A stretch of DNA of 63,829 bases, the filler included, from Atractiella rhizophila (taxonomy: Eukaryota): assembly GCA_021432655.1 (NCBI GenBank). It is 4 parts of 4 records of this genome, joined end to end, with 100 filler letters (N's around TTAATTAATTAA, not from the genome) between each part and the next. Parts side by side here need not be neighbours in the genome. Positions count along the whole stretch, not along the records: positions 23,653 to 43,198 come from MU271804.1; 3 more parts are not named here. One strand, 5' to 3'. Each line of letters begins with the position of its first letter. The stretch's first letter is position 1. Positions 30,901-39,200 of this stretch are shown piece by piece. The notes under the pieces are model-generated. The model ran no database searches. It saw only the letters and a list, made by a program, of their open reading frames with translations, and was not told where the DNA came from. The position numbers and the translations under genes were made by a program.

Positions 30901-32790
30901 TGTCAGACTACATATTTCTGTAAAGGGAAGTCATGTACCTTTGGCACAGCCACATCGGGCTTGTACGACGGCTAGAGCTTCCCTTAAGCGAAGAAAATTT
31001 GATAGAGGAGAAAGCTTGCATGGGACTGAGGACTCCTTTAGACATTCTGCCATCCTCCGGAATGCTCCTTTAGACATCAATCCACACCCGTCGGTCATTT
31101 CCATGTGTCTCTCCGGCTCTGGACTCTGGACTTGCAATACTTCATCGTCCGAAAATATGACAGGCAAGCCTTCGACCTCGGTTCCCTCCAAATTTGTAAA
31201 CACAGGTACTAGAGTGACTCTACTTTTATCCGCCTCATTCTGGCTGAGAAGAGAAGAACGCAGTTCAATTTTTTCTCGTGTCTTCAGCCGTCGATGATTT
31301 TGCTCGAGATCCGTCCACCACGTCCGTTTTTCTCCATTAGGATATCTAGCGGCTATTGTACCTAGAAATATGTCTACATCACTTCCTAATATCAGAGATA
31401 TAGTGACGGACTCGGAACATAATCAAGATTCAGCGCGTCTTTCATCCGCTCCATCCCTTCCATTGAAATCCGCAAGCTGGTATTAAATACGTCCGGCACC
31501 CTCCTCACATTCTTCAACTCGAAACCGAACGCCTTAGCCGTTTTAGACAAACCCAAATCAAAACGGGCAGTGAACTTTGCCCATTTCATCGCACCGTTTA
31601 AATTCGAAGCTATGTGATTCCTGACGAAGGCAAGGAGGGTCAGACGGCGACATCGTGGATCTAGAAGTAGCGGATGGGTGTTGGTCGCGAAGTAGAAAGC
31701 GTGAGAATCTTTGACCGCGACTGGACGGTAAATTCGTCCGAGGAAGAAGATCGGTTTGATGAGGAGCGAGTGGATAAATTCTCTTGGTTTTCGGCTCGAG
31801 ATCACCCTTTCGAGACATTCGGTGTAGGTGAGGGAGAGAAAGCGATCTGTTCCACAATATCGGCGGTAATCGGTGTAAGCTTTGATGACGGAAAGCTGTC
31901 GTGAAGACGCACCACTCCCTCTTGTAGGCCCTTCCCGGGCAAATCGGTAGCCGTCATCCCAACTCGGTGGGCTGAGGGAAATCGATATTTCTGGCATCGA
32001 CTTGTCCTCATAATGAATGCGTCCTCTAAAATGGATGAAACCATCGTCCATGGCACGTTCTTCCATTCCTTCTGCAGCTGATCCCAAGCTATTGAAGTCT
32101 GGACGAAGGCGCCTCCAAAGACCAGACGGGGCTGTCTCTGGCTTCTGGGTCGAAATCAGCCTGTGCAACTTTCCGGAGCGGATTGACGTACAATTGCCCG
32201 TTTCTCGCGATGGGCCATCCGAGCTGGGGATGATGAGGGACTACTGAATAAGGGATTGAGAGTCATAAACTCGTTCTCTGCCTCCAACACAGCTTCATCG
32301 TCTGAAGAATTGAGCTCTTCGTCGTCCGTGTCAGGAATGGTGATCACTTCTCTCTGCTGGGTAGATCTCTCGCTCGTAGAGACAGAAGTAGACCTTGTGG
32401 TTGAGGTGGATGAACTGATGGAAGGAGAGTAGGCATTTCTCATGATATCGTAGACATGTTCGGTCTCTGCGACATCGAGTCTTTCGTAGATCGAGCTGTC
32501 GGCTTCGAGCTGAGACAGAGAAAGAGGTCCGATAGGTTCGAGCCAGCGTTCAATTTCGTACCGCTTAAGCGACGTGAAAGATTGGATGCTTTTGAGGTGC
32601 TTTTCAGAATAGATGTTGAGTTGAATGCATTCTAATCCCCATATTGCAGAGCGAGTGGGTGCCCAAGTGATACATCAATCGGGAAGAACCCACCACCATC
32701 GTCCGTCTCCTTCAATCCCGGCACACCTCCAAGAAAGAATCCAACAGGTTTCGCCCATCCCTTTTGTCTCTTTTCTGGCCTGGCTTGCAT
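27997..32790 (-). CDS. Eukaryotic RNA-dependent RNA polymerase (RNAi; QDE-1-like)
   Basis: DRFL, FFLGRIY, KFTARFDLGLSKT, MTDGCG, VVQARCGCAKG, GVLEPGQI, and catalytic SGGDYDG/D split by an intron near 29610. Gene ends are approximate. Confidence 0.9.
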
Positions 32791-33126
32791 AATTGAGGGA
32801 GACTGCGAACAGATTTTGAGCAAAAGCTCGAGCCTAGCGGAGGCAGTGATATACGTGTACAAAGCAGCTGATGAGGTGTCTTGTTCAGGGTAGTGTTCCT
32901 TGTTTATGGAGGCAGAAAAGAGGTAGCTCGGGAGGAGCGAACGCTGAGGATGCCATCAAAGTTTCGGTTTCGACGTGTTGACCATCCTGACCAACGCGTA
33001 CAACAGTCGGCCTTCTGTTAAACAAACAAACTTTATTAACTTCCGCACAAGTGACTGTCTACCCTTGATGCTCAGCAAGCTGTGGCCCAGCAAACGTGCG
33101 AATAGAAGGGAGAACCTAAGCTGAGA

Positions 33127-34227
33127 ATGTTTCAAGCAAGACCTAATCTCTCGATTTGGGTTGGTTGTCGAAACCTTTCCATTCTCCGAAAAAGCATTTC
33201 GACAAGTACCAGGACAACGCTGTCGCGCCTGCCTCGCAGTTCACGGTCGCGCCATCGCTTGAAGGTATGAAGCGTGGCCTTCTCAAGTCCATTGCTGAGC
33301 TTCACAACAGATCTACCACCACGCGCCATACCACTACAACCTCGTCGGCGGACAAATCAGTCGGTATCGAACGACGCCATGGTCCAGCGCCCGTTCACGA
33401 CTTCCCAAGAAGACTCATGTCATCCGTAAGGCTTTGTTCACCATCACCGCCCTCCCCGTTCCGCCATCAAAACTGCACCGGAAGACTATCCAAAGGGTGC
33501 ACATCCTCCTCTTAGCTTCCAAAGGACTGCATCCGAAGGCATGTGGTCGAAAGCTCGTCAAGCGCCGTCTGGTGGAAGCTCTTCGCTTGTATGCTGCTGG
33601 TGTGAAGGTGGACAACGCGTGGAAGGAGTTGAAGAGGTGGACAACAGAGTGGCATCAGAAGAGGGCGACCGCGCTCGAAAAGAGGAAGAAGGTGCCGGGG
33701 AGCATTGGGAAGGGTTCGTCGTATGGACAGCTGTTGGAGAAGGTGGAAGATGAAATTCGAATGGATTTGGAGAAGCCGAAAGAGAAGAGTCTGAACGTGG
33801 AGCAGACTCTGATGAAGGAGCCGGGGACGAGGGACAGGATACCTCAAGGTGTTTCCTACTCCTCTCCTGCTCTGAAACCGAGCTAGAATAAGGAAACAGA
33901 TTATCATTACATTTTCTTCCCAACACAACAAGTGTTGACGGCACCAATGGAGATATTGATCGACCAAATGGATCAGGTCTTTGTGTGTTCCTTTCAGGTT
34001 CACTTTCGCAGTCCTAGCGACTGACTGTTGAACAGAGTACGCTGAAGCATGCCATTGAGCAAGAGTCAGCCGGGAATAAACAAGACCGTTGTCCTCCAAT
34101 ACATCCAATGGAGCCTAAGCAACTCAAATCGTCACTTCCAAAACTGGAGTGGGAGAGTCGACTTCCCGCCAGCCTTTCACAGAAAGCAAAAGGGCTCGAA
34201 CACGGCGGTCTCACGCACACAAAGTGA
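33127..34227 (+). CDS. Mitochondrion-targeted protein with a bacterial RNase P protein (RnpA)-like domain
   Basis: R/S/T-rich presequence-like exon 1 (33127-33264); HILLLASKGLHPKACGRKLVKRRLVEAL resembles the RnpA SKK..KAVxRNRxKRRLRE motif; a later exon gives DYHYIFFP. Confidence 0.6.
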
Positions 34228-34306
34228 CAGTAAATGGTTCGTTTTCACAATACTCATTACGACCAATACTCGATACTGACACGAACTTTTGTTTCAATAA
34301 TCTATC

Positions 34307-36084
34307 TCAACCAGAAAGCAGGCTCTTCCTCTTGCTCGTCTTCTCGCTCCCTCCCACGCTCGGCATTCGTGCATCCTCGTCCAAATCGTCGTACTTCTTC
34401 TTCAAGTAATCGAATCCCGCGTTGCCCACTCGGTATCCAAAGTCGGAACAGACGACTATGCCTCCTACGATGCCTGCGAGCCGGATGAGGAGGTACGAAA
34501 GCGTGCCTGTCCGTTCGCGGATCTCCACCATCAGGGGTTCGATGTCGTACTAGTCGATGTTCAGGTCAGAAGGAAGAAGGATGTTGGGCAGGGGAAGATA
34601 CGGACTTTGAAGAATATGCCGGGCACCCCTCGCCCGTGTGTGGTTTTTCGAGACATGTCTGTCACGGAGTACTGGTTGGTGTCGATAAGGAAGTTTCTGG
34701 AGTCGATGTAGCGGGTAGAGACGACAGAAATGAAATATTGGAACTGCACATTTCAGTCTCAGCTCGCACTATTCTAGAGCGAGAAAACGGGGTATCGTAC
34801 GATGTGGAAGTCTGCGACAGTCGAACAATCATTCATTTTGCTGAGTGGGTGAAAGAAAGAAAAGACATACGCGCATCTGTTGTCTCCAGGGACAAATCCA
34901 GAGGCTGGCTAATTTTTGGAAAGTACGGTCCAAACGAGAACTCGTTGATGACATGACTGAGGTTCATCACTGTTCCATCCGACCACCACGCGTCAGCCCT
35001 CAGCCGCTCTCTTTATCTCTGAAGGAGGAAAATCAACAAAACGCACATTGATGATCCGTATGCTCCCAACTCAGGTATCCATGTCCCAACGTCGTGATGT
35101 GCAAGTTCCCCGTGACCTTCTTCACATCGATGCTCCCGTAGATTCGACACGCAGGCCCATCCTCCACCGGGTTCTGCGTCGCGGCGAACACGCGCTGATT
35201 CGAGCGTGCGTCCCGCACTTTCGCTCCTACTCCTGGGTCGCCAATGGTTGGGAGGGAGGACATGCGGCGGGCGGAACCGGTTTCGAATGAGGTCTGGGAG
35301 GAATGGTCAGTGTGAGTTTTGTTCTGTGGTGTGAACCTGCGAAAGGAAAGAAGGAATTTTGTTTCTGATTCTGAAGCACTTTGACTCTCCTTTCAAACTA
35401 GCTAGACACGGAGTTCAGGATTTGCAGTTACTGGCTCTGTTAAATACCCATTTCTCTCATACAGAAAAGCCACAAGGTTGCCGTATGTTCAAAGTAGCAG
35501 ACATATGCAGAGTCTATCGTTCTCTCCTTTAATTACTTGACTACGGAGCCAAAGGATTGGTCGCGCAGTCAAAACACAACGCTGGAGTGCATGCGTATCT
35601 GCACTTGTTGAGGTGCAGTGACGGTTCAAGAGACTGGTTAACATCAGAATGGCAGCCTTTAAGGGCAGAGAGCTACCACTGAGGTGCCGTCCCGGTTTAT
35701 TGAGAATGCCACAGCTTCTCTTTCCAGTGTTCCAATTTTCCAACGCCATGGACTACTAAGCAAAAGACTCACTCCTTCCTTCTTCAGCCCATCCGAAACA
35801 TGGAGTCTATCTCCCACTGCATCCCTGACATCCACGCTCAAATAATGACATGGCATTGCCACCGTAAGGTCCACATTAATCTGCAACATCTTCCCTATGC
35901 CCTTATCGACACTGAAGCTCCACCTCGGCTCGCCCCATATGTATTCGTTGAGTTCGTGTGCCACGAGCCAGAAGATGAGCAGGGCAACGAAGACGGTCGC
36001 GACGCCTCCGCGGGAGCTCCGTTGGCGGTAGGTTGGAAGGGTCTTTGGGAAGGCATCGAATTCGCGGATTGGCGGGAGGTCCAT
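34307..36084 (-). CDS. ERV41: ER-Golgi vesicle protein Erv41 (ERGIC family)
   Basis: FDAFPKT..SRGG, LQINVDLTVAMPC..VDVRDAVGD, ACRIYGSIDVKKVTGNLHIT, FQYFISVV, VPGIFFKYD and LIRLAGIVGGI. Confidence 0.9.
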
Positions 36085-36257
36085 GGCCTGATGGCCGCAG
36101 GAGAGAGAAGTGCTGGGAGGCTGCTGTTGGTGGGAGTCGTGGCAATTGTTCACGATTCCGCCCGCCAAACACGTCCACGAAAATCGTGACTTCCACTTCC
36201 AGCAAGAAGGATATAGTCAGGAATATCTGCTGCGTTGTGACAGCAGAAGGTAAGGAC

Positions 36258-39200
36258 ATGCACCTCTCCTACCTCCTTCCGACGCTCCTGCCCTCGCTAC
36301 GGCCACCCCCTTGCACATCCCCCTTCTGGGCCTTCCCTCAGACTCCCCAACACAAAGTCCCAGTTCGAGCTTCGTCTACCCTTCATACAGGAGCGCAAAG
36401 AACACTCAAAACTCATATTACATCACCCGCACAGACCAAAACATCCTCGCTGCATTGCGTCCGAAAAACGGAGAAATAAGTGCGTGTCCTGCCTCCTTCT
36501 TTTCCTCAGTATTTATTGATAATATTCATGACATAGTATGGCGCCATGCATTTGATTCCCTACACGAACGATTAGTGGACCATAAAGTCCACCACGAATT
36601 CTTGTATACGATCTCCATCCCCCGTTCGCCTGCTCACTCCCCCAAATCGTCCGGTTCGCGGCTGAGGAAGATCGACGTCTTCTGGGGACGGGTGGTCTGG
36701 GAACGCTCGTTTCCGGGGCTCGTCGAAGGACTGAGCGTGAGGGAGACAGAAAAGGGAGAGGAGGTGGTCGTCTACAATAACGCTGAACCTGTAATCGTGG
36801 TTCTTGGAGAAGGAGACGATTTGAGAGCGGATGCGAAGCAGAAAGGATGTGGTGTCGTTGGATGGGACGCGGAGGGAAGGAAGAGGTGGGGGTGGGAGTG
36901 CGGGTCGTACGTTTATTTCTTCCCTTTTCTTCCCTCTTAGTTGTTTCCCTTGATTGGAAGAACGGCTAACATGGAAAAACTCTGTGTAGGGAAGGACCTT
37001 CCATTCTGCTCAGTGCACCTACTAAGGAAGGCTTCGCCGTCGTCACGCCCAGCTCTCTCCTCCGCTTGTCCGCAACCGGCACTCTGCTCTCGCGTCACAA
37101 GCTCCCGCACGCTCTCGACTACAGCATGCCTTATTCTGTCCTCCCCATGCCATCTGGTCCATCCTCGTGTACATCCCCGACACGTACAACGTCTACACTC
37201 TTGCGCTGGGCGGAGAGAAGGAACCAAAAGCCCAGCTCAGCCAATGGAAGCACAAGCTGATGGGCGAGAGGGGTTTGAAGGATATCGGACTGGGAGAGGA
37301 TGGGTACATCATGGTTTCTGAACAGGAGAGGGGTTGGGTCGTCGCTAGGAGCAACAGTGATGGAGCGCTGAGCCAAGTGTGGGAGTTCGGGAAGGATGTG
37401 AGCTCTCCTTGTTTGAAGACCCACTCTGACGGACCTACTAATTGCGCAATGTAGGAGGCTGTCTATACTGGTTTCAAGGAGCTGGAGAAAGGCACGCCTC
37501 ATATCATTCGCATTTCGTACTCTCCTGTCCTAGGGGTAGGTTTTACCACCCCTTCTTCCAAACAGTTGACTTAGTAAAGATATAGCTCGCCAACTTTCAA
37601 CATCTCACTCCCAACCCCAAATCATCCCCCATGATGTCCGGATCCACCTTTCCTTTCAAACAATCCATATACGGAAAGGATAGCGGTTCGTTTTCCTATC
37701 GTCCCTCTTTCCCGGCTCTCTCCAAATTCAAGTGCAACTTCTGATTTTCTTGACGTGACAGGCAACCATTGAACTCAAGCCTTCCGCCTCTGGCGCGCTC
37801 GCGAGTCGCATAATGATGTATACGGACCAAGGCACCATGCAGTTATGGCAGGAGGGAAGGGAGATGTGGACGCGCGAAGAAGGAATGACGAAGTGGGGAG
37901 AAGGCAGGGTCGTCCTTTTGGAGGATCCCGAGGAAGTTGTGGAGAAGTTGGAACATGACGCAGCTGAGGTACGTTTGAATACGCTTTCTCCTTTTCAGAG
38001 CGAAGGAAGTGATATTCGGACTGTACCGCAGATTCCGTTGCCCTTCATGAGCCTTGCTGGAAACGTATCTCTTGCGGAAAGAACGGGAAAACCGATCGCT
38101 GTCGGCTCCAGCCTTAACGGATTGGTGCATGCGCTCGATATGAGCGAGGAGGCGAAAGGGAAGGTTCTCTGGTGTCTCTCGCTCGGTGCTGGTGTGGAAA
38201 TCGAGAAGGTGGAGCGAGCGGAGGAAGGTGGACGCGTCGAGGTGTTCTCGAGGCAGAGGAGATGGACCATTGAAGCTAAGACCGGACGAGTTATACTCGA
38301 CCTACCACGTCCACCCGTGAAGAGATATGATGTCGAACCCAAGACTGTCGACGTAATCAAAAGTTCGTATCCCTTCCTTCTGCCTCGAACTAAAACCGTG
38401 AATGCTCATTTAAGCGACGTGGAATAGCTGTTGTTACTTCTCCTATCCGTACGCTCGGAGATGGCACGCACCTGGTGAAATACCTCAATCCACACCTCCA
38501 AGCACGCCTACTTGGCACAGCCCTCGAGATCGTTGATTCGTCGACAGGCTCTCTGATTGACCAGTACGCGGTGGCGGCGACGCACGCTCTTCTTGCGGAG
38601 AACTGGCTCATCTTTACTTACGAGCCGAGCGAAGTCGGCAGATGGACTACCATCGTTAGTGTGGAATATTATTGGGATCAGAAAGAGTCAGGGTTAGTTT
38701 CGTTCTTTGTCCCTCGTCAGCCCACTGACTTAGCCATAATGTTGCCATTTCTAGAGTGATGAAGATCGAGCAAGCTTTCCGATGGGTCGGAGGAGTGAAG
38801 ACACTTGGAATTACCAGTACGCGAATGGGAATCACGACAAAGAACCTGCTCGGTGTGTCTCTCCTTCCCATCTCGCAAAGTACACACGGCTGATTATGGT
38901 GGTGTTTGATATTTGAAGTGGCAACTGAAAATGGTCAAGTGTACAACATTCCACGCAAGTTCCTCGACCCACGTCGGCCGATCGGAAAGCCCTCGAAAGA
39001 TGATCAGGAAGAGATGCTCATCCCTTACGATCCTGTCATTCCCCCCGAACCACGTTGGATCGTTTCAGGCCCTTCACAGGTACGTTTCATCTTTGTTCCT
39101 CACGACCTTCCCGGAGTGCTGACCGCCGATGTCTCCGGTGGCACAGGTGCTTGGTGTGGAAGGAGTCGTGTCTGCGCCGAGCAGGCTTGAATCTACATCC

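Follow-up and report, generated by a model that had tools for sequence, protein, structure and literature searches.

A spliced nuclear gene of Atractiella rhizophila for a probably RnpA-like protein, a candidate partner of mitochondrial RNase P RNA

In budding yeast the nuclear-encoded protein partner of the mitochondrial RNase P RNA is Rpm2, a 105-kDa PPR protein (PMC6097661, PMC4919922), and close homologues of it are reported only in Saccharomycetales (PMC6097661). For fungal mitochondrial RNase P proteins in general, knowledge 'remains scarce': the seven polypeptides associated with the enzyme of Aspergillus mitochondria were never identified (PMC3790967), and PRORP, the protein-only enzyme, is apparently absent from fungi (PMC10941002). 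One precedent exists for a nuclear RnpA gene that serves organellar RNase P RNAs (P RNAs), that of the alga Ostreococcus tauri, whose product is recognisably bacterial-like and was shown to work with P RNA and to complement E. coli (Lai et al. 2011, as described in PMC4919922). Here we describe a gene at positions 33127-34227 (+) of a 63,829-nt stretch of DNA from the basidiomycete Atractiella rhizophila (assembly GCA_021432655.1; four parts of four records joined end to end, hereafter the window), in the part that comes from record MU271804.1. Like the O. tauri gene it is a eukaryotic nuclear gene whose putative RnpA-type product would work together with a P RNA encoded in an organelle, but it is fungal, its homology to RnpA is only probable and its role in RNase P is a proposal. 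With Rpm2 it would have in common the role of a nuclear-encoded partner of mitochondrial RNase P RNA; in contrast to Rpm2 its product is 316 aa long, and a Pfam search found neither PPR nor any other family in it.

The locus is a real, transcribed nuclear gene with four exons (Table 1), from an Atractiella-like basidiomycete; A. rhizophila is classed in the Atractiellomycetes, within the Pucciniomycotina. The open frame of 316 codons gives a spliced product of 36 kDa with an isoelectric point of 10.4. Transcription was checked by aligning contigs of four public runs to the region. A 980-nt contig from run X3, lying on 33108-34233, joins exactly the four exons and skips 46, 51 and 53 nt. This contig differs from the window at 16 letters and therefore derives from a close relative or from another strain. 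The splicing put forward in the original prediction is thus confirmed by a contig that joins all four exons, and the three peptide strings quoted there are all found on the + strand where they had been placed. Two of the ends quoted needed small corrections: exon 1 is four residues longer than quoted (to ...HRLK) and exon 3 two residues longer (MDQ-VF, also present in the public protein P0001). P0001 is a 120-aa 'hypothetical protein' of A. rhizophila which supports the joins of introns 2 and 3. It covers 33716-34227 and has its first residue at a Met inside exon 2, so that exon 1 and the greater part of exon 2 are left out. This public model is truncated; the X3 contig supports the full 316-codon frame. 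Runs X1 and X2 contributed unspliced DNA contigs. Within 32800-34600 each of these two runs has two contig versions over several stretches (e.g. 33186-33319 and 33823-33970) that differ at many sites, and one version has most of its differences in common with the X3 transcript contig. The pairs look as though a dikaryon's two haplotypes, or two strains, were present in the sample.

The core of this protein probably has an RnpA-type fold, a reading that is supported because several lines of evidence, each weak to moderate, converge on it. Residues ~80-141 and ~226-262 would fold into one diverged RnpA-type domain: three strands lead to an RNR-like helix, after which a charged, helical insertion of ~85 residues breaks the domain before it resumes with a fourth strand and ends in a last helix. 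The N-terminus would import the protein into mitochondria, where the basic helix and the sheet would bind RNA, and the protein would serve as the cofactor of an RNA-based mitochondrial RNase P. To this whole chain we give a probability of about 0.4. Compared with bacterial RnpA (PF00825; structures 1A6F, 1NZ0 and 6D1R), the protein is likewise very basic and has its predicted elements in the same order, strand-strand-strand-basic helix-strand-helix. Its basic helix falls on the RNR helix in alignments, with A123, R126, K130 and R131 retained; the two helices are predicted to pack together, as is the last strand against the earlier strands. Bacterial RnpA has ~120 aa, whereas the fungal protein adds an N-terminal extension, the insertion of ~85 residues between alpha2 and beta4 and a tail of ~55 residues in which Pfam recognises no family. 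Moreover, it has R-K-L in place of RNR and either lacks helix alpha1, with the conserved aromatic residue, or has a shortened version of it; its scores stay under all curated thresholds, and its gene is eukaryotic, nuclear and intron-bearing.

Homologues for a query-side profile were not obtained, and we therefore built a profile from 71 proteobacterial RnpA proteins and scored the spliced protein against it by hmmsearch with the HMMER filters off. The 316-aa protein reached 8.4 bits (expectation value, E, of 1e-4 for a single sequence). The match consists of two collinear pieces, profile positions 40-67 on residues 113-141, covering a strand end and the RNR-like helix, and positions 71-100 on residues 225-254, covering the YHYIFFP strand and the helix that follows it. 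This score was equalled by 2 of 5000 global and 1 of 5000 local shuffles, and the reversed sequence scored -1.3. A MAFFT alignment of the query with 40 bacterial RnpA proteins (41 rows) chose the same register as HMMER across the whole domain, with one long insertion gap. Points in favour of more than a chance match are that the two pieces are collinear and that MAFFT arrived independently at the same register.

The same comparisons also supply much of what weighs against an RnpA origin. With a sub-profile restricted to alpha-proteobacterial sequences the score fell to 4.0 bits (reached by 33 and 21 of 5000 shuffles), and with the profile of the remaining 41 sequences to 3.5 bits (77 and 55 of 5000), the second piece being lost. 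When all 927 open reading frames (ORFs) of the window in six frames were scored as a control, an unrelated ORF ranked first; the exon-2 ORF was only second (7.1 bits, E 0.25) and the exon-3 ORF seventh. Comparison with RnpA by hhalign gave a probability of 7.2% in local mode (E 0.0049) and 0.4% in global mode, and 1.8% in a second run. The profile signal is weak, fragile and dependent on the profile used. The drop with sub-profiles, exon-level scores within the noise of the window and hhalign probabilities of 0.4-7% all speak for an alternative in which the resemblance to RnpA arose by chance, the protein being a fast-evolving, lineage-restricted and very basic one of another fold, or largely disordered, with a short Lys/Arg-rich helix that mimics the RNR region. 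We consider this alternative rather unlikely; among the points that oppose it is that the profile's successive parts find their match, in the correct order, in two separate segments.

The MAFFT alignment has nine columns that are invariant or nearly so, and the protein keeps only three of them: A123, R126 (where RNR begins) and R131. The R126 and R131 columns are invariant across all 41 rows. Five are mismatched. In the predicted strand of residues 108-116, H and L stand where beta3 has its conserved R and G; also changed are the K that precedes the helix, the Asn of RNR and the beta4 Asp. The ninth, the nearly invariant Phe of helix alpha1, falls in a gap in the query, the alpha1 region being ~13 residues shorter, and the alignment reveals no counterpart of alpha1 in the protein. 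In the register common to HMMER and MAFFT, the RNR motif has lost its Asn and its second Arg but retains its first Arg, as well as the K-R that comes after it. The leader-binding cleft, formed by the alpha1 aromatic and the sheet, is likewise not reproduced in this alignment. The change from RNR to RKL had been noted in the original prediction and is correct in this register. Taken with the other column losses and the alpha1 gap, it means that decay exceeds what was described there. In addition, a weak RNR-like motif in the helicase Hera proved coincidental (PMC2566870). This precedent favours a chance resemblance here as well, and an RNR-like motif alone therefore carries little weight.

These losses also bear on a second alternative, in which the core does descend from RnpA but has been repurposed as a mitochondrial RNA-binding protein outside RNase P, for example in mitoribosome assembly or on some other RNA, with the new function carried by the insertion and the tail and the leader-binding cleft decayed. 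The evidence for the fold serves this alternative as well as it serves a role as RNase P cofactor. Repurposing would suit the R-K-L motif, the alpha1 aromatic in a gap, the six of nine conserved columns not kept and the gain of ~85 residues inside the domain and ~55 after it. Against it stand the retention of the first Arg of RNR and of the K-R pair, and the highly reduced state of fungal mitochondrial P RNAs (PMC3790967); with such partners an altered protein surface is to be expected even if the role was kept. No result points to an alternative partner, and on balance we think repurposing rather unlikely.

Protein language models also pointed to RnpA. Using the exon-2 ORF as the query in the ESM Atlas (recognition 2683), 16 of the 30 nearest clusters belonged to the set carrying PF00825, with 189-198 of 256 features in common with the query. 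The best cluster of that set (98 members, 286 aa) is eukaryotic and mostly basidiomycete; it scored 0.93 with 189 of 256 features, and PF00825 is found on 18% of its members. As the nearest named neighbour by language-model features, it is similar to our protein in length and comes from the same phylum. Other top rows were ascomycete clusters of 'hypothetical proteins'. Shuffled proteins reach a first match of at least 0.9 in 4 to 10 per 100, a rate that leaves room for a chance match, but the recurrence of a single family in 16 of 30 clusters at this feature overlap argues against one. It thus seems that fungal proteomes do contain RnpA-like proteins, which the present protein resembles. The C-terminal part, which does not overlap the exon-2 ORF, gave a weak result in the Atlas feature search (0.84). 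A structure search of the Atlas with its own low-confidence model of P0001 placed a bacterial RnpA cluster in the top row for residues 30-71, with a template modelling (TM) score of 0.43; this non-overlapping piece also ranking RnpA first is a further point against coincidence, albeit below the tool's bar.

We then asked ESMFold2, run with no alignments, to dock the two halves of the putative domain as separate chains (residues 33-104 of the exon-2 ORF and residues 26-68 of P0001, the latter identical to the window) with the insertion omitted. The two-half score was 0.73 in three of three runs, with at least 98% of contacts in common between runs and a partner predicted local distance difference test score (pLDDT) of at least 88. 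The best of three controls scored 0.27, so that assembly of the halves counts against a chance likeness. For calibration, the mark used in this test is reached by 51 of 78 solved complexes and by 2 of 108 mismatched pairs. In the tightest contacts, FTITAL and YHYIFFP run antiparallel as paired strands and the RNR-like helix meets the last helix with its end; the RVHILLLA strand was brought to the same interface. These predicted contacts are those to be expected of one compact domain with a charged segment of ~85 residues inserted into the loop that links the RNR helix to the fourth strand. The good score may stem from solved RnpA structures that the model remembers, in which case it would itself be a form of RnpA likeness. 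It should be weighed against all three of these lines, the Atlas feature search, the Atlas structure search and ESMFold2, that they rest on ESM-type models and are not mutually independent.

The original prediction had proposed comparing the spliced protein with RnpA by profile and by structure. On the profile side this yielded the low hhalign probabilities given above. As for structure, AlphaFold2 with the single sequence was unusable (mean pLDDT 46.4, predicted TM score 0.28), which adds to the case against the fold. With the 40 bacterial RnpA rows as its alignment, AlphaFold2 returned a mean pLDDT of 72.1, with core blocks of 81-96, and a model comprising three strands, a helix, three helices in the insertion, a fourth strand and a last helix, an outcome biased by the RnpA alignment. 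Foldseek of this threaded model against the PDB returned no match at E<=0.001; RnpA structures headed the list: 6d1r (E 0.14, TM by target 0.59), 6ov1, 6max, 1nz0, 1d6t, 1a6f and 3q1q_A. The threading is circular: it could have spoken against compatibility with RnpA and did not, a point against mere coincidence, and it confirms nothing. A direct-coupling analysis of 190 RnpA sequences, tried for the order of strands in the sheet, was discarded, as the effective number of sequences was 90 and gap artefacts dominated. The topology claimed originally is partly supported, by the collinear profile match, the MAFFT register, the PF00825 neighbours in the Atlas and the ESMFold2 assembly; against it, no curated model matches, and most conserved residues and alpha1 are gone.

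Family and homologue searches likewise count against the RnpA reading. PF00825 (curated cut-off 22.3 bits) was not matched at E<=10 in Pfam by the exons, by the read-through of exons 2 and 3 (P0002) or by P0001, and an NCBIfam search of the same sequences gave no RnpA match. A match to TrfA (E 0.041) among the curated family searches was dismissed as noise. A phmmer search of PDB sequences had only one match, at E 0.34, between the charged insertion and a designed helical protein, 8d06. A word-indexed homologue search produced a single match among 155 candidates, P0001, and phmmer over 1.84 billion representatives found no homologue beyond this same A. rhizophila fragment. A region-restricted search gave 39 candidates, none at E<=10, and a metagenome scan returned 186 pattern-matching stretches with no relative among them. 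The absence of a curated family match, and of any homologue beyond the fragment in these searches, is what a lineage-restricted protein with a fortuitous likeness would give. We also used an alignment of alpha-proteobacterial RnpA in seeking longer eukaryotic proteins; there were 269 matches at E<=10, and no fungal protein was among the 120 listed, all of which were apparently bacterial-type. One of the proteins encountered, P0035, is a 375-aa sequence labelled as from the nematode Ditylenchus destructor, in which ribosomal L34 (PF00468) is fused to an RnpA (PF00825) with 51% identity to alpha-proteobacterial RnpA. It is probably an rpmH-rnpA read-through from a bacterial contaminant or symbiont in a eukaryotic assembly.

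The charged insertion sits at the site of the short alpha2-beta4 loop of bacterial RnpA and is a gap in all 40 bacterial rows of the MAFFT alignment. It is retained in the spliced X3 contig and is therefore not an intron.

Import into mitochondria had been claimed from the start, and the composition of the N-terminus is in keeping with it. The first 46 residues contain 11 Lys/Arg, 13 Ser/Thr and no Asp/Glu, and no acidic residue occurs before residue 135. The amphipathicity of the presequence does not exceed that of shuffled versions: its maximal hydrophobic moment, 0.49, was reached by 882 of 2000 shuffles, so that the test does not discriminate. On composition, its sole basis, we think it reasonably likely that this acid-free, Arg/Ser/Thr-rich N-terminus directs the protein into mitochondria.

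Relative to the X3 contig the coding sequence has nine synonymous and six non-synonymous codon changes, over ~220 synonymous and ~728 non-synonymous sites, giving a ratio of non-synonymous to synonymous rates (dN/dS) of roughly ~0.2 on small numbers. The six amino-acid changes are confined to the presequence-like part, insertion and tail, and residues 80-141 and 225-262 have none. Small as the numbers are, the pattern is consistent with a functional protein having a more constrained core. Purifying selection on the gene and a core free of amino-acid changes between strains are, with the same reservation, points against repurposing.

Whether a P RNA is available to such a protein in basidiomycetes is a question on which the literature has moved. 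A 2012 review found rnpB in no basidiomycete mitochondrial DNA (mtDNA) then known (PMC3790967), which tells against a role in RNase P and in favour of repurposing. A 2024 review lists rnpB for Microbotryum, Schizophyllum and Ustilago (PMC11277600); these later reports in some basidiomycetes, one of them a pucciniomycete, tell against repurposing. Our literature search found no report of rnpB for Atractiella, and a full-text search, with most subscription journals outside its reach, found no paper on a fungal RnpA-type protein. A broader extension is that the gene belongs to a Dikarya-wide family of mitochondrial RnpA descendants hidden as 'hypothetical proteins', which would provide mitochondrial RNase P with its protein component in fungi outside Saccharomycetales and be kept even where the mtDNA has no annotated rnpB. 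We regard this extension as doubtful. If it is true, the P RNA in lineages whose mtDNA has no annotated rnpB would be unrecognised, very reduced or imported.

The coordinates of the gene, its predicted domain parts and its neighbours are collected in Table 1. The adjoining genes are ordinary nuclear ones, of the RNA-dependent RNA polymerase family upstream and of ERGIC/Erv type and EMC1-like downstream. In the ERV-type gene, an X3 contig that ends at 34549 continues with letters that match the window from 34606 on, pointing to an intron of 56 nt at 34550-34605.

Table 1. Features of the RnpA-like locus and adjoining genes (positions in the window).
Feature	Positions	Strand	Remarks
Start codon	33127..33129	+	ATG; in-frame stop 7 codons upstream
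Exon 1	33127..33264	+	46 codons; presequence-like; spliced X3 contig begins at 33108
Intron 1	33265..33310	+	46 nt, GT..AG; joint in X3 contig
Exon 2	33311..33848	+	residues 47-225 and first base of codon 226; N-terminal half of RnpA-like core and charged insertion
Strand, residues 88-95 (contains FTITAL)	33434..33457	+	predicted; aligned to RnpA beta2 (hhalign, MAFFT); strand in threaded AlphaFold2 model; antiparallel to exon-3 strand in ESMFold2
Strand, residues 108-116	33494..33520	+	predicted; aligned to RnpA beta3 (HMMER, hhalign, MAFFT, ESMFold2, threaded AlphaFold2)
RNR-like helix, residues 122-141	33536..33595	+	predicted; HMMER piece 1, MAFFT columns; helix in both AlphaFold2 runs; touches last helix in ESMFold2
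Charged insertion, residues 142-224 (~83-85 residues)	33596..33844	+	19 Lys/Arg, 14 Asp/Glu; predicted helical in both AlphaFold2 runs
Intron 2	33849..33899	+	51 nt, GT..AG; in frame, contains TAG; joint in X3 contig; same residues joined in P0001
Exon 3	33900..33982	+	rest of codon 226 to residue 253; predicted YHYIFFP strand and start of last helix, aligned to RnpA beta4-alpha3 (HMMER piece 2, hhalign, ESMFold2 contacts)
Intron 3	33983..34035	+	53 nt, GT..AG; joint in X3 contig; also in P0001
Exon 4	34036..34227	+	end of last helix, ~55-residue tail, stop codon (ends at 34227); covered by X3 contig and P0001
RNA-dependent RNA polymerase family (PF05183)	31395-32240	-	E 1.3e-7; one long exon; upstream neighbour
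ERGIC_N / COPII-coated ERV-type (Erv41/46-like)	34310-36216	-	convergent neighbour; last exon ends ~80 nt from stop of RnpA-like gene
EMC1 N-terminal beta-propeller (PF25293)	36254-36937	+	weak ORF match, below cut-off, E 9.8e-6

Outside the budding yeasts, the protein component of the mitochondrial RNase P of fungi has never been identified (PMC3790967, PMC6097661). If our reading is true, a presequence-bearing nuclear descendant of RnpA would be a natural, concrete and testable candidate for this old question. It would also illustrate how much an RNase P protein can diverge with its fold preserved, the RNR consensus and helix alpha1 having been lost and a large insertion gained.
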